DNA of 32,000 nt from Ktedonobacterales bacterium (lineage in GTDB: Bacteria; Chloroflexota; Ktedonobacteria; Ktedonobacterales; JADMIN01). The stretch covers positions 1,320,001 to 1,352,000 of the forward strand of contig CP126532.1 in the NCBI GenBank assembly GCA_030167145.1. The letters run 5' to 3'. This document shows positions 7,975-20,452 of the stretch, piece by piece (position 1 is the stretch's first letter; every line of letters begins with the position of its first letter). A program made the translations under genes and the position numbers. The notes under the pieces are model-generated. The model was not told the origin of the DNA. It was given only the letters and a program-made list of their open reading frames with translations, and did not search any database.

Positions 7975-8065
7975 CAGATAGAAATGCACGCCGACAGACA
8001 GGAATGCACGCCGACAGACAGAGCCGACAGATAGAAATGCACGCCGACAGACAAGAATGTCTGTC
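7975..8065 (+). repeat. Three tandem imperfect copies of (aga)aatgcacgccgacagaca, ending in family B hairpin GACAGACA-agaa-TGTCTGTC
   Basis: Copies end at 8000, 8020 and 8053. The hairpin is at 8046-8065. The array lies between the yggU stop (7962) and the FMN-reductase start (8121). Confidence 0.9.
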
Positions 8066-8120
8066 CTACCGGTGGGGCGGACCTTCCCGTCTGCCCGCAG
8101 TCGCAGTGGAAGGAGTGCTC

Positions 8121-8687
8121 ATGGCGGATGACATGATGCGTGTGCTGGGCATCTCTGGCAGCCTGCGCGAGGGTTCGTATAACACGGCGTTGCTGCGCGC
8201 CGCCGGGGAGATGCTGCCAGCGGGCATGACGCTCGACATCGTCACGGTCGGCGATTTGCCGCTCTTCAACCAGGATTTGCTGATGCCGGAGCCGCCGGAG
8301 CCGGTGCGCCGCTTCAAGGCGCGAGTGGCCGCCGCCGACGCGCTGCTCTTTGCCGCTCCCGAATACAATTACTCGATCAGTGGGGTGCTAAAGAACGCGA
8401 TTGATTGGGGGTCGCGTCCGCTGGCGCAGAATGTGTTTGATGGCAAGCCCGCCGCGTTGATGGGCGCGACCACGGGCCTGATGGGGACGGCGCGCGTCCA
8501 GTTGCACCTGCGGCAGATCGGCGTGTTCGTGAACCTGCTGATTCTGAACCAGCCACAGGTGTTGATTGCGCGGGCGGCGGAGAAATTCGATGACGCGGGC
8601 CGCTTGACCGACGAGCCGACTCGCGAGCACGTGCGCAAGTTGCTGGTGGCGCTGGATGCCTGGGTGCGGCGGCTGAACCCGCGCTAG
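8121..8687 (+). CDS. NAD(P)H-dependent FMN reductase (ChrR/YieF/SsuE-like flavodoxin-fold)
   Basis: Track ORF 8004..8687. ATG 8121 follows GGAAGGAG. Motifs seen: MRVLGISGSLR.GSYN, LLFAAPEYNYSISGVLKNAIDW.SR. Confidence 0.85.
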   Translation: MADDMMRVLGISGSLREGSYNTALLRAAGEMLPAGMTLDIVTVGDLPLFNQDLLMPEPPEPVRRFKARVAAADALLFAAPEYNYSISGVLKNAIDWGSRPLAQNVFDGKPAALMGATTGLMGTARVQLHLRQIGVFVNLLILNQPQVLIARAAEKFDDAGRLTDEPTREHVRKLLVALDAWVRRLNPR

Positions 8688-8725
8688 ATGTAGATGAGCA
8701 GGCACGAGAAGGAAGGTTTGGACAG

Positions 8726-9865
8726 ATGCGTACCACACATACGATGGTGTTGCCGCCACGGCTGGCCCTCGCCGCATCCACGGTCTACGCCGTCCAGGGC
8801 AGTATCTTCGCGCTCAACGCCGCCAGTGGCGCACACCTTCGGCGCTACGACGCTCAGACCATTGATGCGCCCGCTGTGGATGCGGATACCCTCTACTGCA
8901 CCGGTCCAACAATGTCTGGCACAGTGCTGGTGGCGATGCAGATCAGCGATGGTGCGACACGCTGGCGTTTTCCCGACGAGCATCGCATGTATACCGTGCC
9001 TATGCTTGCCGGCGGACTCGTCTACACGACCACTGTTGAGGGCATGATGTACGCATTGCAGACCAGCGACGGCGTAGAGATGTGGGCGTTCGAGGCGGGA
9101 CAGATCATCACCGCATCGCCTACCGTCGCGGATGGCCTCATCTATGTCGCGCCCGCCGTCAATGCCCCGGAACAGCCATACGTCTATGTGCTCGATGCGA
9201 GCACGGGGATATTGCTCTGGAGCGCGCCGGTCCCCGATTCTACGGCGCATCGGCTCACGGTGCATGCTGGCGTGCTCTATATCTCCACCCACCGGGGCTG
9301 CGCCGCGCTCAGCGCAACGACTGGCGCGCTGCTCTGGAGTCGCGATCTGCCGCCGTGGGGGCCATGCTCCGCGCCAGTGGCGATTGGCGATACTGTATGC
9401 CTATCTACCCGCACCATGCCCCGGCCTGTCCGGCGAGAAGATGGCACGATTGAACACGCGCCCGGCGGGGGACAGGTGGTGGCGCTGCGCGCGAGCGACG
9501 GCGCGCACCTCTGGCAGCGCGACCTCGACGGCGCGCACAGCCCCACTGAACTGGCGGCGTTCGATGACGTGCTCTACGTTGGTAGTGACGCCGCCTCATT
9601 CGACGCTGCTGGCAACGCCTCAGTCTATGCGCTGCGCAGCCAGGATGGGGCGATCATCTGGCAGGCTACCACCGCAGGCGAACGCCTTGCTACGCCCGTC
9701 GCTACGAGTGACGCCGTCTACGTGGGCGCAAGCGATGGCTGTGTCTATGCTTTACGCGCCAATGATGGCACGCGCCTGTGGCAGACGTTCACCAGTACCG
9801 CCGTGAGCGTGGCGATGGCAATCTCAGGCGAGTTGACGATTTCTGGTGACAAGCCCTCCGCGTAG
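8726..9865 (+). CDS. PQQ-like (BamB/YVTN-type) beta-propeller repeat protein, no obvious signal peptide
   Basis: Repeated blades of the form G.(V/L)Y(V/I)....G.(V/L)YAL....G...W (for example MYALQTSDGVEMW, VYALRSQDGAIIWQ, VYALRANDGTRLWQ). GAAGGAAGG SD; 38-nt gap after the FMN reductase gene. Confidence 0.75.
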   Translation: MRTTHTMVLPPRLALAASTVYAVQGSIFALNAASGAHLRRYDAQTIDAPAVDADTLYCTGPTMSGTVLVAMQISDGATRWRFPDEHRMYTVPMLAGGLVYTTTVEGMMYALQTSDGVEMWAFEAGQIITASPTVADGLIYVAPAVNAPEQPYVYVLDASTGILLWSAPVPDSTAHRLTVHAGVLYISTHRGCAALSATTGALLWSRDLPPWGPCSAPVAIGDTVCLSTRTMPRPVRREDGTIEHAPGGGQVVALRASDGAHLWQRDLDGAHSPTELAAFDDVLYVGSDAASFDAAGNASVYALRSQDGAIIWQATTAGERLATPVATSDAVYVGASDGCVYALRANDGTRLWQTFTSTAVSVAMAISGELTISGDKPSA

Positions 9866-9938
9866 ACCTCGTAGCGGCATCCGGCAGGCGCTAGCCCGTG
9901 GTGAGGTCGCGGCGACAACCACCCGCCAATATTCCTGG

Positions 9939-9967
9939 TTGTGCGGCGTACTGGCCCATGCTATACT
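9939..9967 (+). promoter_or_regulatory. Promoter TTGTGC-N17-(TGc)TATACT of the four-gene complex-I-like operon
   Basis: -35 at 9939-9944; extended -10 TGCTATACT ends at 9967. It lies in the 110-bp gap after the propeller gene. Confidence 0.5.
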
Positions 9968-9975
9968 CGCCGTAA

Positions 9976-11151
9976 GTGTCCGCGAGCCAGCGCCCACGCA
10001 CGCTGGCCGCCGCGCGTGACGCATGCGATTACGCATCCCGCCTCCAATCCACTGGAAGGAGCGTTCCTACGAGCACCGTCCTCTTCCCGCTGGGGCCGTT
10101 TTCTCCGGCCCTCACCCAGCCGCTTGGGCTGACACTGCGCCTGCGCGGCGAAACCGTCGCCGGCATCGAGCCGGTCATCACGGGCTATTGCCACCGCGGC
10201 GTCTGCGAGTTGGCCGGGGGCGAACCCCTCGAAGACGCGCTGGCCATCGTCGAACGCGCCTGCTCGCTGGCTCATGAATCACATCGCATCGCCGTCTGCA
10301 TGGCCGTCGAAAAGGCCACCGGCGGCAAAGTCGCCAAGCCTGCCGCGCAGACCCGCGTCCTCTTCGCCGAAATCGAACGCATCCATGCGCGTTTCTGGAC
10401 GCTGGCCCACGTCGCCCGCGCCTTTGGCCTGAATGGCCCGATGCAGGACGCTCTAGAACAGCGCGAGAGCCTCTTCGACGCGCTGAAAACGGCCACCGGC
10501 CAGCGCCACTATTGGGGCGTCTCCGTCCCTGGTGGGGTGCGTGGCGGGATGGACCTCGAACCGCTGAGCGCCGCGCTCGCCACGCTCGAACCCGCGCTCG
10601 CGATCTGGCGTCGCATCGTGGGGCCGCAGGGCGCGCTGGGCCGCGCTGGCAAGGGCGTCGGCGTCATCGCGGCTGAGCGCGCCGAAGACCTGGGCCTCAC
10701 CGGCCTGGCCGCACGTGGCTCGCGCGCCGTTGCCGACCTGCGCTTCACCCAGAAATATGGCGCATACGCTGATCTGAGCCGCAAAGACACTGAGCGGAAA
10801 ATTGACCAAAGTGGCGACATCGCCGCGCGACTCGTCTGTGCTGTTGAGGATATTGCAGTCAGCCTCACGCTCGCCCAAACCTGTGCCAGCGCGCTTGCCA
10901 CGTCGAGCGCCACAGCCGCCGGAATCACCCCGGCGGGCAGCCTATCGGGCAGCGCCAGGGTGGAGGGTCCTCACGGGCCAATCGAGGCCACGGTCACCCT
11001 TGCGGGCGGCACACTCGCCTCGCTAGAGCTACACGAGCCAGGGGCCGAAAATCTGGCCGCCCTGCCGGAGCTACTGGAAGGGCAATCGCTCGCGCAGGTT
11101 CCGGCGCTGCTGGCCAGCCTGGACCTCTGTGTCGAGTGCCGCGATCTCTAA
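9976..11151 (+). CDS. NuoD/EchE/HycE-like large subunit (group-4 [NiFe]-hydrogenase / complex I 49-kDa family), metal site partly degenerate
   Basis: LGPFSPALTQPLGLTLRLRGETVAGIEPVITGYCHRGVCEL aligns with GPQHPALKEP...GE.V......GY.HRG.EK. An L1-like motif ERACSLAHESH (nt 10261-10284) replaces R.CG.C...H. The L2-like C-terminus DLCVECRDL-stop (11122-11151) corresponds to DPC..C..R/H. The only canonical in-frame start is GTG 9976. Confidence 0.8.
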   Translation: MSASQRPRTLAAARDACDYASRLQSTGRSVPTSTVLFPLGPFSPALTQPLGLTLRLRGETVAGIEPVITGYCHRGVCELAGGEPLEDALAIVERACSLAHESHRIAVCMAVEKATGGKVAKPAAQTRVLFAEIERIHARFWTLAHVARAFGLNGPMQDALEQRESLFDALKTATGQRHYWGVSVPGGVRGGMDLEPLSAALATLEPALAIWRRIVGPQGALGRAGKGVGVIAAERAEDLGLTGLAARGSRAVADLRFTQKYGAYADLSRKDTERKIDQSGDIAARLVCAVEDIAVSLTLAQTCASALATSSATAAGITPAGSLSGSARVEGPHGPIEATVTLAGGTLASLELHEPGAENLAALPELLEGQSLAQVPALLASLDLCVECRDL

Positions 11152-11169
11152 CGGAAAGGAAGGGCGGTT

Positions 11170-13509
11170 GTGCCACTTTCGACATACATGGAGCTATTGA
11201 CGCTGGCGCCCGGCGTCTTCGCTCTGCTGATCCTGATCGCGGGGCTGCTGAAAAAGCCACTCGCGCCGCTGACGCTGGGGCTGGCCGCACTTGGCGCGCT
11301 CGTGCCGGTAGTCTGCCTGTTGTTGATCGTCTCGGCGCTACATGGGACGACCGTGCCGCTGTGGTTCACGCTCTTTGGCGGCTCGATCAGCGAAACGGCG
11401 TGGTTCTCGGCAGCCTACCGCATTGATCCGCTGGGCATCTACGCTGCCTTTGGCATTACGTGCATCGTTGCGCCGCTGCTGATCTGGATGGCCTGGCAGC
11501 GCGGCAATGAGGTCATCGCCAGCGGCACGGCAGTGGACGCGGAGAGCGATCAGGAGGGCAATCAGGAGAGCGGTGAGGCAGCGACGCAGCCGTTCACACG
11601 GCGGAGCGTCTCGCCCGCCATCTGGGGCGGCCTCGCCCTTGCGCTCGGTGTCGAATCCGCCGCGCTGACGCTGGTCTTCAGCGATAACGCGCTGTGGCTG
11701 GCGCTTTCATGGGTACTGCTCGCCATCATGGGGTGGGGCCTGGGCGAAGTCGGCAGCGACCCCGACACCCTGGATAAGCCAGGGCTGGCGCTGATGGTCG
11801 CTGGGCCACTGCTCTGGGCGCTCTTCTTCCTCTTTCCGGCGTTTGGCGCGCATACCGCGCAGACGGTCTATCCGCGCTTTACGGATATGATGGGCCGTGG
11901 CGGCGTCAGCCCGCTGCAAGCGCTGGCGCTGGCTGTGGCGCTGGCGCTGGCGGGCGGCGCGTATCCGTTCCTGGCGTGGGTGCGCGCCCGCGCGGCGCTG
12001 ATTACGCCCGCTGGCCTTACCGCGCTGGCGCTGGTTGTGCTGCCAGCGGCGATTTTTGTGGGCGCGCGCACCTACAGCGCCGCACAGAACGCGGCGAGCG
12101 CCTGGCAGCAGATCGGGCAGGCGCGGCCACCCGTCACCGGCGGTGTCTTTTTCGCGCTGCTCGGTGCGCTCACCGTCGGCATCTGCGGGCTGCTGGCGCT
12201 CGAACGCCGTGACGGACGCGCGCTGATCGCCTTCCTTGCCGCGTCGCAGGTTGGCTGGGGCTTGCTGGCGATTGGCATCGGCGTGCCTGAAAGCGCGGTC
12301 GGTCTGGTCGCGCTGCTGGGAACCACGGTGTTGGGCCTGGGGGCGATGCTCGCCGCGCAGTATGCCGGCGACACCCTCACCAGCGACATCGAACCCGATG
12401 CCGCCGGGCCACGCCCATTCGGCGCACCGGTGCATCCAGTGCGCCTGGCCGCGTGGATCGCCGGCGCGCTGGCGCTGGTTGGCGCGCCGCTCTGCGCGGG
12501 CTTCGTGCCGCGCCAACTGACGATGGCAGGCGCGATCCATGCGCAGGGTCTGACCATTCCGCTCAGCGGCCTGGCCTGGGCTGGCGATGCTTTGCTGTTC
12601 CTGGCTTTGCTGCGCGCCGTCGCTCCCGCCTTCACCCAGTTCTTCCCCGCCCGCGCCGCCGCGCTGGCCGCGAGTGAGGCCGCCGATGACGAGTCCGCCG
12701 ATGGAGTGGAGGTAGCGGAAGACGCGGGCCAATCAATCGAGGATAAGCGCACCACGTCGCGCGGGCGCGGTGTTTCTTTCACCGTGCGCGATGTGCCTGC
12801 CGCGCTGCTGGGCCTGCTGGTGGTGGTGGTTTCGGTCGCCCCGCAGGCGCTGCTGACGGTGGGCGCGCTCCCCGGCGCGACGGCCCTGCTCCAGGCGAGC
12901 GACGCCGCTATTGCCGCCAATGTCAGCGCGTTGCAATATACGGCTGGCCCCGCGCAGGTTGTCGCCTCCATCGCCTGGATCGCCGCCGCCGTCTTCTTCG
13001 TGCTGCGGGTCTTCCTGATGCCCAGCGGCGACCGCGAAAGCCAGCCGGTCTATCTAGCGGGCCGATCTGGCGCCGATCTGGCGACAGCCGATGGCGACGT
13101 GGCAGTCGAGCTAGCTGGCCTGCCCGCCCCCAGAGATACCTGGCAAGACCTCAAGCCCACCTTTGATTCCGCATGGACGCTCCCCGGCGCTGAGTGGTTG
13201 ATGAATGGCATGGAAGATGAAGCCGAAACCGACGATGAGCTAGAAGGCGCGGAAGACGAAGACATCGGGGCAGAGGATGAAGCGGAGGTAGCGGAGCGCG
13301 ACGCGGACGCGCCAGAAGCTGTGTCAGAAGCAGCGCCCGTTGCGGAAGAGACGGGGGAGAAGGCGGAGGAAGTGCGGGAAGAACCGACCCCACCCACCAG
13401 CGCGGCCCCACCCCCGGAGGCGAAACGCAGCGTGCCTACCGCCGCATCGAGGCAAAGCAGCAGCGCAAAGAATACCCAGAAGCGCGGCAAGACGGGAGGC
13501 CGAGCATGA
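11170..13509 (+). CDS. NuoL/M/N / EchA / Mrp-antiporter-like polytopic membrane subunit with a long acidic C-terminal tail
   Basis: GTG 11170 follows GGAAAGGAAGGG. It has more than 14 hydrophobic segments. PF00361-like blocks seen: YRIDPLGIY, LWLALSWVLLAIMGWGLG, AGGAYPFLAWVRARAALITPAGLTAL, LIAFLAASQVGWGLLAIGIG, ALVGAPLCAGFVPRQL. The tail from ~13200 is EDEAETDDELEGAEDEDIGAEDEAEVAERDADAPE... Confidence 0.7.
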   Translation: MPLSTYMELLTLAPGVFALLILIAGLLKKPLAPLTLGLAALGALVPVVCLLLIVSALHGTTVPLWFTLFGGSISETAWFSAAYRIDPLGIYAAFGITCIVAPLLIWMAWQRGNEVIASGTAVDAESDQEGNQESGEAATQPFTRRSVSPAIWGGLALALGVESAALTLVFSDNALWLALSWVLLAIMGWGLGEVGSDPDTLDKPGLALMVAGPLLWALFFLFPAFGAHTAQTVYPRFTDMMGRGGVSPLQALALAVALALAGGAYPFLAWVRARAALITPAGLTALALVVLPAAIFVGARTYSAAQNAASAWQQIGQARPPVTGGVFFALLGALTVGICGLLALERRDGRALIAFLAASQVGWGLLAIGIGVPESAVGLVALLGTTVLGLGAMLAAQYAGDTLTSDIEPDAAGPRPFGAPVHPVRLAAWIAGALALVGAPLCAGFVPRQLTMAGAIHAQGLTIPLSGLAWAGDALLFLALLRAVAPAFTQFFPARAAALAASEAADDESADGVEVAEDAGQSIEDKRTTSRGRGVSFTVRDVPAALLGLLVVVVSVAPQALLTVGALPGATALLQASDAAIAANVSALQYTAGPAQVVASIAWIAAAVFFVLRVFLMPSGDRESQPVYLAGRSGADLATADGDVAVELAGLPAPRDTWQDLKPTFDSAWTLPGAEWLMNGMEDEAETDDELEGAEDEDIGAEDEAEVAERDADAPEAVSEAAPVAEETGEKAEEVREEPTPPTSAAPPPEAKRSVPTAASRQSSSAKNTQKRGKTGGRA

Positions 13510-13997
13510 GCACATCACCAACACGCCGCCGCACATCCGTTTGGGTGCTGCCGCTGGCGGCGGGCGGTTGTGGCGCCTGCACGCAAAGCATCTACGCGCT
13601 TCAGGCCACGGGCTACGCCGCCGCGCTCAAAGCCGACGGCATTAGCTTCGCGAGCAGTCCGCGCCATGCCGACATCATCCTGCTGAATGGCCCGCTCACC
13701 GAGCAGGCGCATGAAGCGATCCAGCAGGCGCTGGACGCCGTGCCCCTGCCGCGTGCGCTGGTCGCCGTCGGCAATTGCGCGATTGACGGCTGTGTCTTCG
13801 CGGGCGGCGCGGGCATCATCGCCAATGCCGCCGAAACGCTCAACGTCAACATTGATATTCCCGGCTGTCCGCCCGCGCCTGACGCCATTCTGGCCGCGAT
13901 TGGCGAGGCCGCGAATCTGCTGAGCGGCGCGCATGATAGTATCAGCGATACCAGCGACACGGACGATGCGGACGATGCGGGGGAGGACGAGGCATGA
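13506..13997 (+). CDS. NuoB/EchC/HycG-like small subunit (20-kDa [4Fe-4S] subunit family)
   Basis: ATGA overlap with the upstream stop. Motifs seen: LAAGGCGAC (CxxC), SPRHADIILLNGP, VAVGNCAIDG, IPGCPPAPD. Acidic C-terminal tail SDTSDTDDADDAGEDEA. Confidence 0.85.
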   Translation: MSTSPTRRRTSVWVLPLAAGGCGACTQSIYALQATGYAAALKADGISFASSPRHADIILLNGPLTEQAHEAIQQALDAVPLPRALVAVGNCAIDGCVFAGGAGIIANAAETLNVNIDIPGCPPAPDAILAAIGEAANLLSGAHDSISDTSDTDDADDAGEDEA

Positions 13998-14956
13998 ACG
14001 GAGTACTGGCCTTTGCGCTGGCGGTGTTGATCTACCCCGGCGTGGCAGTGGCGCTGGTGGCCGCGTGGGCGCTCTCGTGGGCGCGCCAGTCGGCCCGCGC
14101 CGTCACCGGTGGCAGCGCCATCCCTGGTCCGCTGCGCGACGTAAACGAGCTACGTAGCGAGATCGAGCGCGACACTATCACCCCCCACGGGGTATCAGCT
14201 CGTTTCCTCAATGTGGTGTCGAGTCTGGCCGTTGTTTTTCCCCTGCTGGCGCTGGTGCTGCTGCCTGTTCCCGGCAATCCGCTGGTGAACAGCATCGGCC
14301 TGAAGGGCGACATCGCGCTGGAAGGCGGGCTGCTGCTGGGCGTGCCGGTCATGCGGCTGCTGGTCGCCTGGGCGATCCCCTCGCCCTATACGCGGATCGC
14401 GGCGGATCGCGGGGTGCGGCTGCTCGCGGGGGTGGTGGTCACGATGGTGCTCGCCCTCACCGCGATTGCCGAGCAACTCGCTACGCTCACCCTGAATGTG
14501 GAGCCATCGAAGACGGCGCTACCGACCTTCGCGATCATCACCCGCATCCTGGCGGCACTGGCCTTCATCTTCACGCTGCCCGCGCTGGCGCGAGTGAGCG
14601 CGCTGCGGGCTGGCCATGGCAACCTGGAGGTGTCGGCGGGCGAGCTAAGCGAGGTCAGTGGGCAGGATCTGGCGGGCTTCCGTCTGGCCGAAGCGGTCCA
14701 GTTGGTCGCGGTGGCGGCGGTCTTCGTCGCGGTGTTCGTGGTGCCAATCTTCCCCACCGTCGCGGGCACGGGGCGGGCGCTGGTCTGGATTGTGGGCATC
14801 ATCCTCACGGCGCTGGGCATCGGCGCATGGGAAGGCTACGCCAGCCGCGAAGCCACCTCCGCCGAACGCCCGCCGCTCAACTGGTGGCTGGGCTGGCCGA
14901 TCCTGCTGGCAATGCTGGCGCTGGTCGCTGCCGCGTGGGCCGCGCGCGGGGTGTAA
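13994..14956 (+). CDS. NuoH/EchB/HycD-like membrane subunit
   Basis: ATGA overlap with the upstream stop. About 8 TM segments. WARQSARAVTGGSAIPGPL corresponds to ER+..A..Q.R.GP, and LEVSAGELSEVSGQDLAGFRLAEAV corresponds to AE.ESELV.G...EYSG..FA.F.LAEY. Confidence 0.75.
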   Translation: MNGVLAFALAVLIYPGVAVALVAAWALSWARQSARAVTGGSAIPGPLRDVNELRSEIERDTITPHGVSARFLNVVSSLAVVFPLLALVLLPVPGNPLVNSIGLKGDIALEGGLLLGVPVMRLLVAWAIPSPYTRIAADRGVRLLAGVVVTMVLALTAIAEQLATLTLNVEPSKTALPTFAIITRILAALAFIFTLPALARVSALRAGHGNLEVSAGELSEVSGQDLAGFRLAEAVQLVAVAAVFVAVFVVPIFPTVAGTGRALVWIVGIILTALGIGAWEGYASREATSAERPPLNWWLGWPILLAMLALVAAAWAARGV

Positions 14957-14958
14957 GG

Positions 14959-15759
14959 TCACGCAAGCAGTTCTTCCAGCACGACCGCGACGCCGTCCTC
15001 ATCGTTGCTAGGGGCGATGCGGTCAGCGGCGGCGCGGGTGGCTTCTGCCCCATTCGCCATTGCCACCGCCATCCCCGCCGCGCGCAAGAGCGGAATATCG
15101 TTCTCACCGTCGCCTATCGCCAGCACCGCTTCGCGTGGGATGCTGAGCGATTCGCGCAGGGCCGCCAGCGCCAGTCCTTTGCCCGCCTCCGCGTCGAAGA
15201 ACTCCAAGAAGTCCGGAGTCGTCGTGGTCATGATGATTTCGGGCGGCAGCAGCGGCGCGAGTGCCGCACGGAGCGCGGCCAGGCGCAGTGGTGGCCCCGC
15301 CAGAAGGATTTTCGCGGCGGGTGGCAGTTCGGGCGCGAGTAGGTTCGGCACGATCTCTGGTGGCCCCTCGCCGTATTCGCGAAAGATGCCAATGTCGGGA
15401 TGTGGCGTGTCCATATAGATCATGTCCAGCGCGAAGTGCGACACCAGCAGCGATGGGTCGGCCTGCCGCACCAGCCGGAGCACCAGATAGTGGCCCGCCT
15501 GGGAGAGAGGACGAAAGCGCAGGGTTGCGCCGGTGGCGCTCTCGCGGGTCGCCGCGCCGTTCAGCACGATCTGCGGACCCGATACCCCCATCTCGGCCAG
15601 CAGCGGCAGCACTGACCCCATCAACTTGCCAGTGGCGAGCGCGATAGTAGCGCCAGCATCCTGGGCGGCGCGCACTGCGGCGGCCACACGCGGGCGTAGG
15701 TGGTGCGCCGAATCCAGCAGCGTGCCATCCACATCCAGCGCGATCAAGCGATACTGCAT
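14959..15759 (-). CDS. Cof-type HAD-IIB family hydrolase (sugar-phosphate phosphatase-like)
   Basis: Motifs seen: LIALDVDGTLL (motif I), ATGK (II/III region), AIGDGENDIPLL..AG..VAM.N (motif IV). Convergent with the NuoH-like gene, 2 bp apart. Confidence 0.85.
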   Translation of the reverse strand: MQYRLIALDVDGTLLDSAHHLRPRVAAAVRAAQDAGATIALATGKLMGSVLPLLAEMGVSGPQIVLNGAATRESATGATLRFRPLSQAGHYLVLRLVRQADPSLLVSHFALDMIYMDTPHPDIGIFREYGEGPPEIVPNLLAPELPPAAKILLAGPPLRLAALRAALAPLLPPEIIMTTTTPDFLEFFDAEAGKGLALAALRESLSIPREAVLAIGDGENDIPLLRAAGMAVAMANGAEATRAAADRIAPSNDEDGVAVVLEELLA

Positions 15760-15857
15760 GAATATCTATCCCCGGAGCCATTCGTGATCTCGTTCACGCA
15801 AAGAGGCGCCCAGACCATTTGGCCCAAGCGCCTCTTCAGAGCTATCCGCGTGGCTGA

Positions 15858-16184
15858 CTACCAGCGCGAATTGCTATAGCTACCGCTGTGCGCGCCGCCG
15901 CCCATCTGCTGATAGCAGTTGCTGCAATAGACGGGCTTGTCGCCACGCGGCTGGAACGGCACGCGTGCCTCGCCGCCGCAGGACGAGCAGACAGCGGTAT
16001 ACATCTGGCGTTGCGAGCGATCACCGCCGTAGCCGCCCCCGCCGCTCTTGCGCGCCGCGCGGCACTCCGGGCAGCGCGAGGGCGAATGCGCGAGGCCTTT
16101 GCTCGCATAAAAGTCTTGCTCGCCTGCGGTGAACACGAAGTCACGACCGCAGTCACGACACCGAAGGGTCTGATCGGTGGCCAA
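15858..16184 (-). CDS. Zinc-ribbon protein with two CxxC...CxxC modules
   Basis: TTG start after GAGAGGTTAGG. Carries LRCRDCGRDFVFTAGEQDFYASKGL.H.PSRCPEC and AVCSSCGGEARVPFQPRGDKPVYCSNCY, matching the duplicated probable zinc-binding domain seen in small bacterial proteins. Confidence 0.75.
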   Translation of the reverse strand: MATDQTLRCRDCGRDFVFTAGEQDFYASKGLAHSPSRCPECRAARKSGGGGYGGDRSQRQMYTAVCSSCGGEARVPFQPRGDKPVYCSNCYQQMGGGAHSGSYSNSRW

Positions 16185-16428: not shown

Positions 16429-16457
16429 AGTATACCATGACTCCTTTCCTAATACAA
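16429..16457 (-). promoter_or_regulatory. Promoter TTGTAT-N17-(TGg)TATACT for the zinc-ribbon gene, implying a ~235-nt leader
   Basis: On the minus strand, -35 is at 16457-16452 and -10 at 16434-16429, with a TG at the extended -10 position. Confidence 0.45.
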
Positions 16458-17484: not shown

Positions 17485-18030
17485 CTAGACGCCGCTGGTG
17501 TTGATGACGATGTCGGTCTGCCCGGCCTGGCTATCGGGGAATACGGTAATGGTGATCCGCGCGCCGCTATGCGTCGCTTGCAATTGGGTGGTGGTGTCAA
17601 TGGTGTTGGTAGTGACATTCTGCCAGCCGGAGGCGGGGAGCTTATTCGCGTAGAAGGCGGCCACCGCGCTGACGCTGTCGGTGGTGCAGAAGCCGTAGAA
17701 TCCAGAGCCGCCTTCGCTCTGGCCGACGCGCAGCTTGGCGTTGGGATAGGCAGGGATGCTGCCGGGTAACTGGGCGGTGATGCTGGCGGGCTGCGAGCAC
17801 AAGGACGAGACGCCTAGCGGTATGCCCGGTGTGCCCTGCGAACTGGCCGTGGCAGTGGGGCTACCATTGATGAGCGGGCCGGTAGGCGTGTTCACACTGC
17901 CGCTCGTGGTGGCGGTCGCCGTCGCGGTTGCGGAGGCGCCGCCACTCGCGCAGCCTAGCAGCAATGTCACCGCCAGCAAGAGCGCGCCCGCTGCCAGCCA
18001 TGGGCCAATCACCCGCCGCCACTCACTCAC
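17485..18030 (-). CDS. Putative lipoprotein (lipobox LLGC), function unknown
   Basis: Track ORF 17485..18078. GTG 18030 follows AAAAGGGTGGG. Carries VSEWRRVIGPWLAAGALLLAVTLLLGCASGG and a Thr/Ala-rich linker. The C-terminal domain contains YANKLPASGWQ. Confidence 0.6.
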   Translation of the reverse strand: MSEWRRVIGPWLAAGALLLAVTLLLGCASGGASATATATATTSGSVNTPTGPLINGSPTATASSQGTPGIPLGVSSLCSQPASITAQLPGSIPAYPNAKLRVGQSEGGSGFYGFCTTDSVSAVAAFYANKLPASGWQNVTTNTIDTTTQLQATHSGARITITVFPDSQAGQTDIVINTSGV

Positions 18031-18334
18031 ATCAGCCCACCCTTTTGTTTGCACAGGCACAGAACCACTACCGCCCACATGTCGAGTATACCCTGGCTGT
18101 CCAGTGCCGCCCGCCAGGGCTACTGCGCGGCAGGGCAGGAATCATGGGAATGCGCCCCGCATTCACTCGCGCCGCGCTTGCATTCGCACGCGGGCACACT
18201 GGTACTTTCGTTGGCCTGGGCTGCCCTTCTCTAATACGAAGCGCTGTCTGCGCCCGCGCGAATGCTGAGCGAAGGCCAGGATGTGGCGCAGGTCATCGCT
18301 AGCTTCACTATCTACTCGTTGTCAGGGTGCGTGC

Positions 18335-19147
18335 TCAAGGACAGCTCGTAAATGAATTGTGCCAATCCCAGTAGGTATTCGGGTTTCCCTCAGGTTGAAA
18401 TGATGTCCTGAATTGTGTGACACCACACGGGATTATCCAGGCAACCTCGACATTCTGTTGATACCCTGCTGGTACAGAGAATGGGCCACGTGGTGAGGCG
18501 GAATACATGTTCCAGCAGGTACCAGACGTATCGCAAAGAGAAAAATCGCTCGCCTGGAAGCCCTGGGTCTCGGATGATTGATTCTCAAATTTGTAATCAA
18601 CCCACTCGAAGTAGTTGCCAGGGGACGCATATTCGTTTCCATAGCTTGGGCCGAAACGAGCCGATGCAGATGTTTTCCAGGTAGGCGGTGTAGGAGTGTC
18701 GGTTGGCGTTGGGGTGTAAATATCAGTAGGAAGGGGGGCATAGTTGAACGATCCACCCGTGTTTTGTGGATGTGATGTCAGCTTGGAAAGTGATGGCGCG
18801 GCGAGGAGCAAACCAATAACAAAGAGCGCGACAGGGAGGCAGCCTGCGGTACGCTTCTTCGCGGGCGCCGCGGTCACAGGCTGCGCGACCGGAGGAACAC
18901 CGGGACTTGCGGAAGTTGGCGCATGGTGATAGTAGGGGACATCTTCTGATGCGGCATTTGGCATCATATAGGGCGAACCTGATGTGGAATTTGGAGCTGG
19001 ATTCGGCGCTGGTGCGAAGGGCGGCGCTTGCCGGGGCTGAGTTGTGTGGCGTCGCGAGAACAACCAACGTATTGTAGTGATAATAGCGCCAAGAATAGTC
19101 ACGATGCTGGCGCCCAAACTCGTCAACACAACGACGTTCGTGTTCAC
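18335..19147 (-). CDS. Membrane protein with Pro-rich linker and C-terminal Cys-containing DUF4352-like beta domain; lies in a low-GC cassette
   Basis: GTG start after AAAGGGG. Two TM segments (VVVLTSLGASIVTILGAIITTI and CLPVALFVIGLLLAAP), TPTPTDTPTPPT linkers, and a C-terminal domain YFEWVDYKFENQS..FSLCDTSGTCW....VEVAWIIPCG. GC is about 45-50% against about 65% in the flanks. Confidence 0.65.
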   Translation of the reverse strand: MNTNVVVLTSLGASIVTILGAIITTIRWLFSRRHTTQPRQAPPFAPAPNPAPNSTSGSPYMMPNAASEDVPYYHHAPTSASPGVPPVAQPVTAAPAKKRTAGCLPVALFVIGLLLAAPSLSKLTSHPQNTGGSFNYAPLPTDIYTPTPTDTPTPPTWKTSASARFGPSYGNEYASPGNYFEWVDYKFENQSSETQGFQASDFSLCDTSGTCWNMYSASPRGPFSVPAGYQQNVEVAWIIPCGVTQFRTSFQPEGNPNTYWDWHNSFTSCP

Positions 19148-19232
19148 TTTTTTTTTGCCCCTTTGTCAGGTATCCCTTATGGACGCTCGTTCTATTTCAT
19201 CTGCGTGGATTCAGCAGAGAACGGACGAGTCA

Positions 19233-19261
19233 ATTTTAAGCAGGTACGGTAGCCATGTCAA
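19233..19261 (-). promoter_or_regulatory. Near-consensus sigma-70 promoter TTGACA-N17-TAAAAT for the cassette gene
   Basis: On the minus strand, TTGACA is at 19261-19256, the spacer is 17 nt, and TAAAAT is at 19238-19233. This is the best promoter match in the window. Confidence 0.65.
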
Positions 19262-19480
19262 TAGAAAATTCAATCGCAATGAGAATTGAGCACTACGACT
19301 AGCAAAATATGGCATGCTCACGGACAGGTTATGTCGCGTTGTGATGGTGTCATCTGCGAATACCAGGCAACATTTGCAGGGAGAGGCAGTGGAACGTCTT
19401 GTACTGGAACATCCACTGGCTGTCCCGCTCGATAGATGAAGGGGATAGCCAGTGGAATCGCTATGCTCGCACGTTCCTGT

Positions 19481-20452
19481 TTATCCGACGTGTGGGATGA
19501 CTTCTTCGGCGAAGCGGTGGAGCATTTCGTGGTCGTAGGCGATGCGCGGCAGGTTGACGTTGATATAGTCCGCGCCGGCCTCGATACGCGCCTGAAGTTG
19601 GGCGATGATCTCATCCGGCGTGCCGACGCGCACCATGTTGCGGAACTCCGCCAGATCGAACCCATAGGGCGCACGGGCTTTTTCGGTCGCTTTTTCTGGG
19701 TCTTCGCCGGGCCGCAGGAGGAACAGCGGCACATTGGTGGATTTGATGATGCTGTCGTAGTCGCGCCCAACCGTGTCGCAGTGCTTGCGGAGGACGGCGA
19801 GTTTCTGGCGGATGTCATCAGGGCTGCCGCCGATATTGCAGGCATCGGCGTACTTCGCCACCAGTTTGAGGGTCACCTGCTCGCCGCTACCGCCGATCCA
19901 GAGCGATGGATGGGGCTTGCGCACGCCTTTTGGCTCGTTGATCGGCTTGTGGATGCTGTGATATTCGCCGGTGAACTCGGGTGCGTCCTCGGTCCACATT
20001 TTGACCATGATCTGGGTGGCCTCACGGAATGCGCGCATACGGTCGCGCGTCTCGGGGAAGCCGTAGCCATAGGCGCGCCACTCGTGCTCGTACCAGCCTG
20101 CGCCGATGCCGCAGTAGAGACGCCCGTGGCTCATTACGTCCACGGTGGAGGCCATCTTCGCCAGCAGCGCGGGGTTGCGGTAGCCGAGGCAGGTCACCAT
20201 CTGGCCGACGTTCACGCGCTGTGTGTCGCGCGCCAGTCCGGCGGTGATCGTCCACGCCTCGAAGGTGGTCTCCATCGTGGGCGAAGGGACGGTGTGGAAG
20301 TGATCGTAGACCCAGATCGAATCGTAGGCGGGTAGCGCATCGGCGGCCTTCGCGACGCGCGTCATCGCTTCGTATTGCTCCACCGGATCGCGAATCTCCA
20401 TCAGGTCCATGCGCCAGCCCTGTGGCACGAATACACCGAATCGTACAGCCAT
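19481..20452 (-). CDS. Luciferase-like monooxygenase (LLM) class oxidoreductase, F420-dependent-type
   Basis: MAVRFGVFVPQG..., SIWVYDHF, GYRNPALLAKMASTVDVMSHGRL..GIGAGW...E...YG..F, LWIGGSGE..TLKLVAKYAD..N. This is the typical LLM TIM-barrel pattern of the F420-dependent subgroup. Confidence 0.8.
   Translation of the reverse strand: MAVRFGVFVPQGWRMDLMEIRDPVEQYEAMTRVAKAADALPAYDSIWVYDHFHTVPSPTMETTFEAWTITAGLARDTQRVNVGQMVTCLGYRNPALLAKMASTVDVMSHGRLYCGIGAGWYEHEWRAYGYGFPETRDRMRAFREATQIMVKMWTEDAPEFTGEYHSIHKPINEPKGVRKPHPSLWIGGSGEQVTLKLVAKYADACNIGGSPDDIRQKLAVLRKHCDTVGRDYDSIIKSTNVPLFLLRPGEDPEKATEKARAPYGFDLAEFRNMVRVGTPDEIIAQLQARIEAGADYINVNLPRIAYDHEMLHRFAEEVIPHVG

Follow-up and report, generated by a model that had tools for sequence, protein, structure and literature searches.

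A conserved four-gene operon of Ktedonobacterales predicted to encode a minimal member of the complex I/group-4 hydrogenase superfamily

The 32-kb stretch of DNA analysed here (the window; GCA_030167145.1, contig CP126532.1, 1,320,001-1,352,000, forward strand, from a soil Ktedonobacterales bacterium) carries four co-oriented, translationally coupled genes at positions 9976-14956, which we call D, L, B and H. The four genes are conserved as a single unit on which purifying selection acts, and they encode only the four subunits that complex I and membrane-bound hydrogenases share. With a probability of about one half, we propose that the operon encodes a functional stand-alone four-subunit complex, a former group-4 (MBH/Ech-type) [NiFe]-hydrogenase stripped to the subunits that the superfamily has in common.

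Gene layout and expression signals

The features of the locus, in window coordinates, are as follows.
9939..9944, + strand: -35-like hexamer TTGTGC; TTGT-C columns kept in an alignment of ~18 orthologous loci
9959..9967, + strand: extended -10 element TGcTATACT; conserved in the alignment of orthologous loci
9968..10068, + strand: probable 5' leader, from 9976 annotated as D codons 1-31; variable in length and sequence between loci
10054..10061, + strand: Shine-Dalgarno sequence GGAAGGAG, 7 nt ahead of the ACG; GA-AGGAGCG consensus kept in the window's clade
10069..11151, + strand: D gene, NuoD/[NiFe]-hydrogenase large-subunit-like, 360 aa from the probable ACG start (annotated ORF 9976-11151)
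11152..11169, + strand: intergenic gap of 18 nt, cggaaaggaagggcggtt, after D and before L, with the Shine-Dalgarno sequence aaggaaggg within
11170..13509, + strand: L gene, NuoL/MrpA-type antiporter-like (PF00361), 779 aa
13506..13997, + strand: B gene, NuoB/hydrogenase small-subunit-like (PF01058), 163 aa
13994..14956, + strand: H gene, NuoH/MbsM-like membrane anchor (PF00146), 320 aa
14959..15759, - strand: convergent Cof-type HAD hydrolase (PF08282, TIGR00099), 3' boundary of the operon

The open reading frames (D with 391 aa as annotated) lie exactly where a first-pass annotation had placed them, and the junctions described there can all be read in the DNA. The D stop TAA (11149-11151) is followed by the 18-nt gap and the L start, GTG at 11170; ATGA overlaps join L to B (13506-13509) and B to H (13994-13997), both with a GGAGG-type Shine-Dalgarno sequence ahead; and 2 bp separate the H stop (14954-14956) from that of the HAD gene (reverse complement, from 14959). 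The HAD hydrolase (157.6 bits to PF08282 and 139.6 bits to TIGR00099 in profile searches) lies outside the complex and marks the 3' boundary of the operon. A convergent HAD gene occurs in ~10 loci of the window's clade and is missing from others. Furthermore, the same annotation had listed NuoC-, NuoI-, NuoA/J/K-, NuoEFG- and hyp-like genes as missing from the operon, and neither these nor ferredoxin-like genes were found anywhere across the 32-kb window.

The operon had also been credited with a promoter of its own at 9939-9967. This candidate matches 8 of 12 consensus positions, and a generic sigma-70 scan returned 0 sites there because the -35 hexamer matches at only 3 of 6. Nevertheless, the pattern TTGTNC-N13-15-TGNTATACT, taken exactly, has a single match in the window against 0.00 expected (TGNTATACT alone: two occurrences in 32 kb, 0.13 expected) and is present once upstream of D in 22 of the 29 loci fetched, which bears out the proposal and points to a conserved extended -10 promoter-like element. 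Of the coordinates given for the first gene, 9976-11151, the reading frame stands, but the start is probably wrong: D most likely begins at a conserved ACG (10069), 93 nt downstream of the annotated GTG at 9976. Annotated codons 1-31 show a dN/dS of 0.85-1.26 over few sites, residues 1-30 reach an AF2 pLDDT of only 41-55, and the leader 9968-10068 matches no Rfam family. A conserved ACG start behind a strong Shine-Dalgarno sequence would suggest deliberately low or regulated synthesis of D.

Family, conservation and descent

All four proteins pass Pfam gathering scores: D with 86.1 bits to PF00346 (Complex1_49kDa), L weakly with 29.8 bits to PF00361 (Proton_antipo_M, cut-off 21.5), B with 75.9 bits to PF01058 (Oxidored_q6) and H with 44.8 bits to PF00146 (NADHdh). 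The PDB profile matches agree, the best being MbhL for D (171 bits), MbsH for L (39.7 bits), MbhJ for B (125.7 bits, ahead of HycG with 99 and PSST with 86) and MbsM for H (44.2 bits, then NuoH with 38.7 and MbhM with 35.6), so that the four family assignments made at first reading hold. As all four score far below every NCBIfam equivalog cut-off (for instance NuoD 153 against 360 and NuoH 35 against 305), they are divergent proteins. The AF2 model of D (pLDDT 87.9) shows a NuoD/large-subunit fold, with a TM-score of ~0.8 to NuoD, HycE and MbhL, and that of L (pLDDT 79), with broken TM7 and TM12 and Foldseek matches to NuoL, MrpA and MrpD, shows that a NuoL/MrpA antiporter fold is predicted to be kept.

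The D-L-B-H set recurs, between unrelated flanks, in more than 30 loci of three clades (annotated contexts L025-L028, L030 and L031, besides the closely related L034/L035), in the same order wherever a locus is long enough to show gene order. In none of these loci does a NuoC- or NuoI-like gene adjoin it, nor did any conserved partner gene turn up next to the operon. The neighbourhood check suggested by the first-pass annotation thus finds the reduced set to be the rule, and a local or recent deletion, or a pseudogenised remnant, is ruled out by this recurrence. Moreover, dN/dS values of 0.15-0.19 for D and of 0.15 or lower for L indicate purifying selection, each of the four proteins has dozens of invariant columns, and operon and promoter persist in lineages that share only 35-60 % identity. 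The searchable literature, whose coverage leaves Marreiros 2013 and Batista 2013 outside, yielded no characterised enzyme with this architecture.

One may ask whether the operon encodes only a core, with NuoI/EchF-like, NuoC-like or formate/CO dehydrogenase-like subunits encoded elsewhere docking on B and D, which would make a conventional Ech-, FHL- or Ehr-type complex. A 2x[4Fe-4S] wire is present in all characterised relatives and is fused to the small subunit in the classical Ehr locus, other Ehr complexes are proposed to partner with FDH (PMC6349859, PMC7894505), the acidic tails of B and L could recruit partners, and nuoJKL-like genes lie 2.5 kb downstream of the operon in one clade-B locus. 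However, no such gene is adjacent in the more than 30 loci with their differing flanks, no candidate lies within the window, and the conserved promoter and tight translational coupling also speak against a mere core. An obligate partner kept unlinked for so long across three clades would be possible and yet unusual for this superfamily, and we regard the arrangement as conceivable but rather unlikely.

The D family comprises 138 proteins, which fall into ~23 clusters at a 50 % identity threshold in a set of 1.84 billion representatives, and is almost confined to Ktedonobacterales MAGs. In an exhaustive search, nearly all of its nearest non-family representatives carried the E + CGIC..H + CxxC..R signature, which marks the closest outgroups as genuine group-4 [NiFe]-hydrogenases. 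These outgroup motifs, the MbhL and MbhJ scores and the 25 of 138 family members that keep all four Ni-Fe cysteines, always together with the proton-relay Glu, indicate that the operon descends from a group-4 hydrogenase.

Predicted cofactor sites and a model of the complex

Three cysteines of D, C96, C385 and C388 (numbering of the annotated ORF), are kept in 135 of the 138 family members. The second Cys of the L1 CxxC bridges Ni and Fe in [NiFe] sites. This Cys, the proton-relay Glu and the C-terminal Arg are jointly lost across the whole of the window's clade, the window's D reading Q48, C96-S-L-A99 and, at its C-terminus, ...CVECRDL (Ala, Gln and Leu, respectively); the motif tables thereby confirm the altered catalytic residues noted before. 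That the complex is still a true [NiFe]-hydrogenase of minimal size, with hyp genes elsewhere providing its maturation, might be argued from the three invariant cysteines, from the nearest outgroups, which are true hydrogenases, from the sister clade, whose D retains the complete signature (four cysteines, Glu and Arg), and from the JGI auto-annotation of D as 'ech hydrogenase subunit E'; group 1h hydrogenases are also reported in Ktedonobacteria (bioRxiv 10.1101/2021.08.23.457424), so that hyp genes may exist in the genome. Given the three substitutions, their co-occurrence throughout the clade and the fact that a HydDB-type classification rejects sequences of this sort as Ehr or Nuo, we consider this highly improbable. 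The C96/C385/C388 cluster could still bind Ni or another metal and allow unexpected chemistry, some reactivity with H2 included.

Four cysteines of B (C22, C25, C91 and C121, in the pattern CxxC...C...CPP) are placed for one [4Fe-4S] cluster and are predicted to be those of the proximal cluster; they are retained throughout the window's clade. Their CxxC is of the hydrogenase type and not the tandem CC of NuoB. B has no ferredoxin (Fer4) domain or further cluster domain, and it ends in an acidic C-terminal tail. H, with ~8 TM segments, retains the acidic residues that NuoH-like subunits typically have in their TM5-6 loop, the invariant positions of this region being E217, E220, R230, E233 and Q236.

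These loop residues, together with a B cluster at the N2-equivalent position and a D fold structurally as close to NuoD as to hydrogenases, would suit a minimal complex-I-like quinone reductase in which a soluble donor feeds the B cluster and menaquinone is reduced in the D/B/H cavity, without wire or pumps; having lost the NiFe site, MBS and complex I likewise act on hydrophobic substrates with the proximal cluster (PMC7684303). Against this, the equivalents of the Nqo4 quinone ligands His38 and Tyr87 are Thr47 and Ser97 in D, with no His or Tyr at these positions in the family consensus, B has the CxxC instead of the tandem CC, and three NiFe-site cysteines still fill the pocket. We therefore hold such a quinone reductase to be doubtful.

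L has ~16 TM segments, acidic inserts and an acidic, Pro-rich C-terminal tail. Across the whole family, L was found to have neither the canonical Glu of TM5 nor the Lys/His of TM7 nor the Lys of TM12, as the earlier remark on altered pumping residues had it; the residues were mapped by a weak alignment to the profile (39.7 bits), and column inspection showed the corresponding helices to be entirely free of Lys, Glu and His. About a dozen invariant Arg, Asp and Glu residues could form a non-canonical ion path.

Following from these features, we picture the stand-alone complex as a redox module of the Ehr/MBS kind that is anchored in the membrane and has a single cluster. The B-D heterodimer would be seated on H, an arrangement known from MBH, MBS and complex I, and L would pack beside H, where its TM15-16 hairpin may supply the third 'coupling loop', like MbsH' in MBS. 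Because there is no NuoI-type wire, an external one-electron carrier would dock directly on B, from whose cluster electrons would pass to a substrate bound in the chamber that D, B and H form together; the three invariant cysteines of D may mark a remodelled metal or thiol site in this chamber, and H2 would no longer be made or consumed. L, unable to conduct protons by the known route, would be mainly an anchor and scaffold, and any ion coupling would hence be confined to H.

A more radical possibility is that the complex has no catalytic redox role and is a repurposed scaffold, sensor, assembly device or decaying relic, with its cluster and cysteines merely structural. In its favour are the loss of the catalytic Glu, of one Ni-Fe Cys, of the C-terminal Arg and of every pump residue, the missing electron-input subunit, the low abundance implied by the weak ACG start, and the fact that MBS does not need its two residual NiFe-site cysteines for catalysis (PMC7684303). 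However, the purifying selection on D and L, the retention of the D cysteines and B ligands, the invariant columns in all four proteins and the conservation of operon and promoter across distant lineages rule out decay; a sensor or scaffold is still compatible with them. On balance, a non-catalytic role seems improbable.

Comparison with known systems

MBH of Pyrococcus furiosus (PDB 6CFW) provides the best profile matches for D and B and shares the hydrogenase-type CxxC of the small subunit and the C-terminal CxxC of the large one. However, it has 14 subunits, including MbhK (NuoC-like), MbhN (NuoI-like) and small Mrp-like subunits, and MbhL possesses four cysteines, E21 and the C-terminal Arg (PMC7684303 and our alignment), of which D lacks one Cys, the Glu and the Arg. 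MBS of the same organism (PDB 6U8Y) is also hydrogenase-derived with a partly lost NiFe site, and performs catalysis at its proximal cluster; its Loop 1, a coupling loop, is contributed by TM15-16 of the NuoL/MrpA-type subunit (PMC7684303). Like D, it has no equivalent of E21 or of Nqo4 H38/Y87, its residual NiFe-site cysteines adjoin the proximal cluster, and its MbsH and MbsM give the top PDB scores with L and H. In contrast to the window's system, MBS is archaeal and sulfur-respiring, is built of 13 subunits, among them MbsN (NuoI-like), with Mrp modules that are functional, keeps two of the four NiFe cysteines where D has three, and binds its proximal cluster by only three Cys ligands where B offers four.

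The smallest characterised relatives are the six-subunit Ech enzymes (EchABCDEF), which contain a single antiporter-like subunit (EchA), the NuoH-like EchB, the small subunit EchC and the large subunit EchE, and no NuoA/J/K-like subunits. Unlike the present operon, Ech also has EchD (NuoC-like), EchF (2x[4Fe-4S]) and a complete NiFe site, and its gene order is different. Complex I/NDH-1 shares the four subunit families, the D fold (TM-score ~0.8) and a NiFe site that is not intact, whereas our system lacks NuoA, C, I, J, K, M, N and EFG as well as the quinone-ligand His/Tyr, has CxxC for CC in B and no pump residues in L, and scores far below cut-off for all NCBIfam Nuo equivalogs.

The Ehr (energy-converting/Ech-hydrogenase-related) complexes, such as Geobacter sulfurreducens GSU0739-45 (PMC6349859, PMC7894505, PMC10284858, PMC10432482), likewise encode group-4 large- and small-subunit homologues with NuoH-like and antiporter-like subunits, without a complete [NiFe] motif set in the large subunit and without a separate NuoC or NuoI gene. 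By these features the window's operon fits the operational label "Ehr", yet it differs from the classical six-gene locus in order, composition and sequence. The latter (L033) runs antiporter-like, NuoH-like, 200-aa protein, antiporter-like, large, small, and the Geobacter cluster has seven loci, against four genes here in the order large, antiporter-like, small, NuoH-like. Furthermore, none of the NiFe positions of the classical large subunit is a Cys (AGDS...SG), whereas three are invariant Cys in D, the classical small subunit carries a fused N-terminal 2x CxxCxxCxxxCP ferredoxin domain that B lacks, and mutual scores between the two families reach only ~86-89 bits. With the second antiporter, the 200-aa protein and the fused ferredoxin of L033 all missing, the first-pass description 'Ehr-like, further reduced' is apt.

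Lastly, the 'universal adaptor' that Batista, Marreiros and Pereira are said to have defined in 2013 (Biol Chem 394:659, cited in PMC5938582 and PMC10432482), reportedly a module found in complex I, group-4 hydrogenases and related complexes alike and made up of one subunit each of NuoB-, NuoD-, NuoH- and antiporter-like type, matches the gene content of D-L-B-H exactly. However, that adaptor was abstracted from larger complexes, whereas here the set exists as a stand-alone conserved operon, which would make it a natural minimal version of the complex I/hydrogenase energy-converting machine.

A conserved four-gene operon and its surroundings

Four genes had been predicted in the first-pass annotation, and all four ORFs lie at exactly the predicted coordinates, each scoring above the Pfam gathering threshold of the family to which it had been assigned. 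They are named here D (like NuoD and the [NiFe] large subunit), L (like NuoL and MrpA), B (like NuoB and the small subunit) and H (like NuoH):

9976-11151, + strand: D, Pfam Complex1_49kDa, 86.1 bits, with a sub-threshold NiFeSe_Hases match over residues 74-138
11170-13509, + strand: L, Pfam Proton_antipo_M, 29.8 bits
13506-13997, + strand: B, Pfam Oxidored_q6, 75.9 bits
13994-14956, + strand: H, Pfam NADHdh, 44.8 bits

The 18-nt SD-containing gap upstream of L, the ATGA overlaps at 13506 and 13994 (each with a GGAGG-type SD upstream) and the convergent HAD gene that closes the unit 2 bp after H, which is of Cof type, were likewise recovered as described. All four proteins fall far under every curated Nuo, Fpo and hydrogenase equivalog cut-off of NCBIfam, which explains why NCBI names OJF49_001220-1223 (D, L, B, H) hypothetical proteins; JGI calls them Ech/FHL (hydrogenase) subunits. 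Given this divergent naming, soil-metagenome surveys counting "group 4 hydrogenases" may misclassify D-L-B-H genes.

The family proved to be narrow. A word-indexed search returned 101 D homologues at no less than 207 bits before scores fell to 114 bits, and a second search, with the most divergent member as query, added about 45. Exhaustive HMMER over 1.84 billion cluster representatives recovered only about 23 family clusters (at least 162 bits, 37-60% identity), beyond which no score exceeded 142 bits. Every member with a name comes from a Ktedonobacterales or Chloroflexota MAG, save one labelled Proteobacteria that is probably mis-binned, and none has a UniRef source tag. The order D-L-B-H is kept wherever a locus is long enough for it to be seen, as well as in six Pfam-annotated contexts with unrelated flanks (L025-L028, L030, L031).

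A NuoC- or NuoI-like gene (the latter encoding a 2x[4Fe-4S] ferredoxin-like protein) was found neither in the operon, nor in the window, nor adjacent to the unit at any orthologous locus, of which more than 30 were compared. It had been suggested that such genes in relatives would make the operon a remnant; the neighbourhood comparison was run, and no such gene was adjacent anywhere. The pseudogene or relic reading is furthermore ruled out by dN/dS and by invariant columns, and the operon would be functional, because dN/dS is 0.15-0.19. That the four proteins form part of a larger complex, with partners encoded at unlinked sites, is unlikely; the unit recurs as the same four genes in otherwise unrelated surroundings. 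In the 32-kb window, no nuo, hyp or ferredoxin-like genes occur elsewhere, the absence of hyp maturation genes being that from 32 kb of a 5.07-Mb genome.

Several neighbours were considered as partners and rejected. The FMN reductase and PQQ-like beta-propeller genes (8004-9865) lie on the same strand directly upstream of the operon and are kept only in 92-93% identical relatives (L034, L035), so they are probably not functionally linked to it. The HAD gene is convergent and missing at distant loci. Extra subunits in the D-L gaps of two orthologous loci were ruled out as well, both gaps being mobile-element insertions in otherwise intact operons: L004 carries a TnpB/IS605-OrfB-like ORF (11130-12014, - strand) and L010 a 453-aa HNH-containing, IscB-like ORF (9572-10933, + strand). 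In L030, a clade-B four-gene unit is followed, after 2.5 kb and two opposite-strand genes, by nuoJ-, nuoK- and nuoL-like genes (17515-20282; Oxidored_q3, Oxidored_q2, Proton_antipo_N/M), which are probably part of the canonical complex I.

The window otherwise holds genes of PgeF, YggS, YGGT and DUF167 type and genes for a zinc-ribbon protein, a PHP protein, a luciferase-like monooxygenase, a pentapeptide protein, an acyl-AMP ligase, an EamA transporter and a Mo-co oxidoreductase. GC drops to 0.56 between 18001 and 20000, versus about 0.65 elsewhere, and a 270-aa ORF located there (18335-19147, - strand) shows flat codon-position GC and no Pfam match; this segment may be foreign or non-coding DNA. 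Among the orthologous loci, L006 and L007 (both from MAG MFD02579.bin.2.12) are operon copies on two contigs, 96-97% identical, of which L007 is frameshifted in H; strain co-binning, recent duplication or long-read error could account for the pair. In L017, an internal stop interrupts L; in the near-identical L016, B reads GGDGAS where GGCGAC is expected.

Promoter and start of D

The promoter proposed at 9939-9967 agrees with the consensus at 8 of 12 positions and was missed by a generic sigma-70 scan of 9700-15900, which detected none. We do not read this as absence, because the alignment of loci shows a column-conserved element upstream of D, composed of TTGTGC, a 14-nt spacer and TGcTATACT. 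The pattern TTGTNC-N13-15-TGNTATACT matches once in the window (0.00 expected), and 22 of 29 loci have a single match upstream of D. Since TGNTATACT also precedes the zinc-ribbon gene, both in the window and in the orthologous locus L014, the idea of an operon-specific operator is weakened, and the element is read instead as a lineage-typical extended -10. In the window, the extended -10 motif TGGTATACT (16429-16437, - strand) lies ahead of the zf_Tbcl zinc-ribbon gene (15858-16184, - strand); in L014, the motif with TTGTAC 14 nt upstream (14743-14771, - strand) again stands ahead of a zf_Tbcl gene, which suggests a lineage-typical strong promoter form. No Rfam family matched anywhere in the window, and therefore no known riboswitch resides in the D leader.

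The ORF 9976-11151 exists as annotated, but translation of D most likely starts not at its GTG but at ACG 10069, judging from the comparison of loci, and would yield a product of 360 aa. Upstream of D, a variable-length leader is followed by a conserved GA-AGGAGCG and, 4-5 nt on, by ACG AGC ACC GT (window 10054-10071; L002-L027), the ACG standing 6-7 nt behind a strong SD. Six loci have an in-frame TGA directly ahead of this SD, and in three further loci an upstream stop occurs and none of ATG, GTG and TTG precedes the conserved FPLGP strand. L016 has ATG exactly where the others have ACG, and the sister clade starts with ATG a few codons further on. Furthermore, the stretch of 31 residues that the annotated GTG (9976) adds ahead of the ACG is unconserved, has a pLDDT of 41-55 and evolves at a dN/dS of about 0.85-1.3, against 0.15-0.19 in the remainder of D. 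ACG initiation is, to our knowledge, very rare in bacteria, and our literature search on it found nothing useful.

Annotated starts vary among the homologues: many (P0008, P0028, P0042, P0049, P0068 and others) begin with "MLYS...", the peptide that results when the promoter sequence cATGcTATACTCG (window 9958-9969) is translated, so gene callers seem to choose an ATG inside the -10 region. In other homologues the annotated start is shifted downstream, truncating the N-terminus.

A proposed hydrogenase-derived complex with remodelled subunits

The D family profile finds its best PDB match in MbhL (171 bits), followed by HycE (161) and NuoD (about 160), and the B profile clearly prefers MbhJ (125.7 bits) over HycG (99) and PSST (86); the best matches of H and L are MBS subunits and are weak (44 and 39.7 bits). 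The complete group-4 signature (Glu, CG[IK]C...H and CxxC...R) is present in nearly all of the closest representatives outside the family. Thus, descent of the family from a true group-4 hydrogenase is well supported by these sequence comparisons. In a rough NJ tree, 4-Cys and Glu-retaining lineages separate the window's clade from the outgroup hydrogenases, and an Ehr-like group without Cys (P0161, P0162, P0105, P0106) is placed outside the family; comparison with the outgroups makes four Cys the ancestral state.

The D protein of the window departs from the group-4 signature (L1 RxCGxCxxxH, L2 DPCxxCxx(H/R), four Cys) in the way the first-pass annotation had noticed for its catalytic residues. 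Its motifs read ERACSLAHESH, with Ala in place of the second Cys, and DLCVECRDL, leaving three of the four Cys (C96, C385 and C388 in the numbering of the annotated ORF). The proton-relay Glu of the beta1-beta2 loop (HPxxxEP), whose role is known from MbhL E21 (PMC7684303), is replaced by Gln48; across the family this position is Q45 / E44 / L15. The three remaining Cys are kept in 135 of 138 D proteins, and all four, always together with the Glu, in 25; the second L1 Cys is Ala in 86, Ser in 18, Gly in 5 and Asp in 3. Both CxxC motifs are complete in the sister clade (P0100, L022, L023), and D of this 4-Cys clade ends in ...CIACIDR-stop, a mature-type C-terminus, versus ...CxECxD[L/Q] in the window's clade. 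That the window's complex is still an active hydrogenase is very improbable, with three ligands nearly invariant on one side and the fourth Cys and the relay Glu replaced on the other. Individual members deviate further: D of L019 has an intact L1 CGTC and has lost the last L2 Cys (DLCVADIDR), and a few others (P0131, P0133) have lost several Cys. The Cys site thus appears to be eroding independently in several twigs.

A minimal quinone reductase, which would fit the complex I-like subunit types, is quite unlikely. The residues aligned with the quinone head-group ligands Nqo4 His38 and Tyr87 are Thr47 and Ser97 in the window, and the family consensus has neither His nor Tyr at these positions; MBS likewise is without equivalents of E21, His38 and Tyr87 (PMC7684303).

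B retains the four Cys for a proximal [4Fe-4S] cluster (CxxC...C...CPP) as C22, C25, C91 and C121, and its 163 aa hold this hydrogenase-type ligand set alone, with no Fer4 domain. The family would thus truly be without any electron wire, and therefore an external carrier would have to exchange electrons directly with the B cluster. In B of L019, L021, L022, L023, L025 and L030 (e.g. L025 5265-5855), GNPP or GDPP stands instead of GCPP, and the fourth ligand is therefore not Cys; this is seen in the 4-Cys-D clade and, within the window's clade, in L021. MBS offers a parallel with its three-Cys catalytic cluster, although the Cys missing there is a different one. A Tat signal in B (N-terminal RRR) was rejected from the sequence, as the cluster-binding CxxC follows within about 12 residues and there is no h-region.

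In H, E217, E220, R230, E233 and Q236 are invariant, in a stretch that aligns with the TEYSG...AEY region of NuoH. The AF2 model of L, computed with database homologues (pLDDT 79), has the 14-TM antiporter fold with discontinuous TM7 and TM12 (broken helices 248-262/268-277 and 423-437/445-458) and two further C-terminal helices beyond it, and Foldseek aligns it to MrpD, NuoL and MrpA with TM up to 0.78. The channel residues (TM5 Glu, TM7 Lys/His, TM12 Lys/Glu), reported as altered in the window, are replaced in every L, the aligned positions being Val/Leu, Ala, Leu and a variable one (R/S/T/Q/F/E); none of 19 family members has Lys, Glu or His in those helices. The TM7 break reads WVRRRA in place of WLPDA, and about a dozen other Arg, Asp and Glu are invariant. 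A non-catalytic scaffold or sensor is improbable; the lost channel residues are what such a role would allow, and beside them stand the nearly invariant Cys of D and the invariant charges of L and H. L and B also bear long, variable Asp/Glu-rich low-complexity tails (13230-13509 and 13923-13997), the last 93 residues of L counting 25 D+E and 9 Pro, and L has acidic low-complexity inserts at 11497-11619 and 12640-12790; such tails and inserts, of other lengths, are found in homologues of both proteins.

We propose that the operon encodes a functional, autonomous, four-subunit, hydrogenase-derived complex of the Ehr/MBS kind, which would have abandoned both canonical pumping and the chemistry of H2. 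In an arrangement modelled on MBH, MBS and complex I, B-D would sit on H, with L beside H, and the TM15-16 hairpin of L may supply a third coupling loop, as that of MbsH' does in MBS (PMC7684303). The D/B/H chamber would hold the substrate that the B cluster serves, and the three invariant Cys there would mark a remodelled site. The statements on identity and evolution of the operon are well supported; electron donor, substrate and coupling, as we infer them here, are uncertain.

A bolder reading, which taken as a whole we consider rather doubtful, is that the family represents an independent bacterial replay of the hydrogenase-to-complex-I transition, caught in living intermediates. The 4-Cys clade would then be a bona fide four-subunit [NiFe]-hydrogenase without a ferredoxin-like wire and, if so, smaller than any membrane-bound hydrogenase known so far. 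On this view, neofunctionalisation would have given the window's 3-Cys clade an enzyme whose catalytic site is a new tri-cysteine metal/thiol centre with a single [4Fe-4S] feed, and H together with the charge-remodelled L (Arg-rich TM7 break) would couple differently from the canonical Lys/Glu relay.

Comparison with known systems

How redox chemistry is coupled to ion movement in the large machines complex I, MBH, MBS, FHL and Ech is a matter of continuing debate. A four-subunit operon gives cryo-EM, reconstitution and mutagenesis a much smaller object to work on, and the family offers natural intermediates within one four-subunit frame, namely members with four Cys and Glu and members with three Cys and no Glu. 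The roles of a [4Fe-4S] cluster lacking an electron wire and of an antiporter-like subunit without channel residues, as well as the replacement for Ni-Fe in the pocket, become directly testable. The finding overturns nothing; its value lies in an unusually small conserved natural core and in the living 4-Cys/3-Cys intermediates.

The operon had been called Ehr-like and further reduced, and both descriptions hold. Operationally it is Ehr, hydrogenase-related with an incomplete NiFe motif set (PMC6349859, PMC10284858, PMC10432482): one CxxC is broken, and the small, NuoH-like and antiporter-like subunits are encoded adjacent to the large one. It differs from classical Geobacter-type Ehr, which has at least two antiporter-like subunits, a HyfE-like subunit and a small subunit with extra Fe-S motifs (PMC7894505). 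The window's operon has four genes instead of six or seven, in a different order, with one antiporter-like gene, no HyfE-like gene and a B without a ferredoxin domain; its D keeps three Cys, whereas the classical large subunit keeps none. The classical Ehr locus L033, for comparison, has six genes and a small subunit with an N-terminal 2x CxxCxxCxxxCP (Fer4) domain, and only about 86-89 bits connect the two groups. A 2021 preprint announces Ehr in Chloroflexi "for the first time", and its main text gives no architecture. In the literature searched, we found no description of a four-gene D-L-B-H unit; an earlier depiction is possible, for instance in Marreiros 2013.

With four genes only, the operon is equally distinct from complex I, whose core counts no fewer than 11 subunits (NuoA, C, I, J, K, M and N among them). 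It contains exactly one each of the NuoB-, NuoD-, NuoH- and NuoL-type antiporter-like subunits, and this gene content reportedly equals the "universal adaptor" of Batista/Marreiros. That four-subunit adaptor (NuoB, D, H and one antiporter-like subunit) has so far been an abstraction; here it stands alone as a selected, conserved operon. To the Cys series of MBH (4), MBS (2) and complex I (0) (PMC7684303), the family adds a "3-Cys" step, in aerobic soil bacteria and not in hyperthermophilic archaea.
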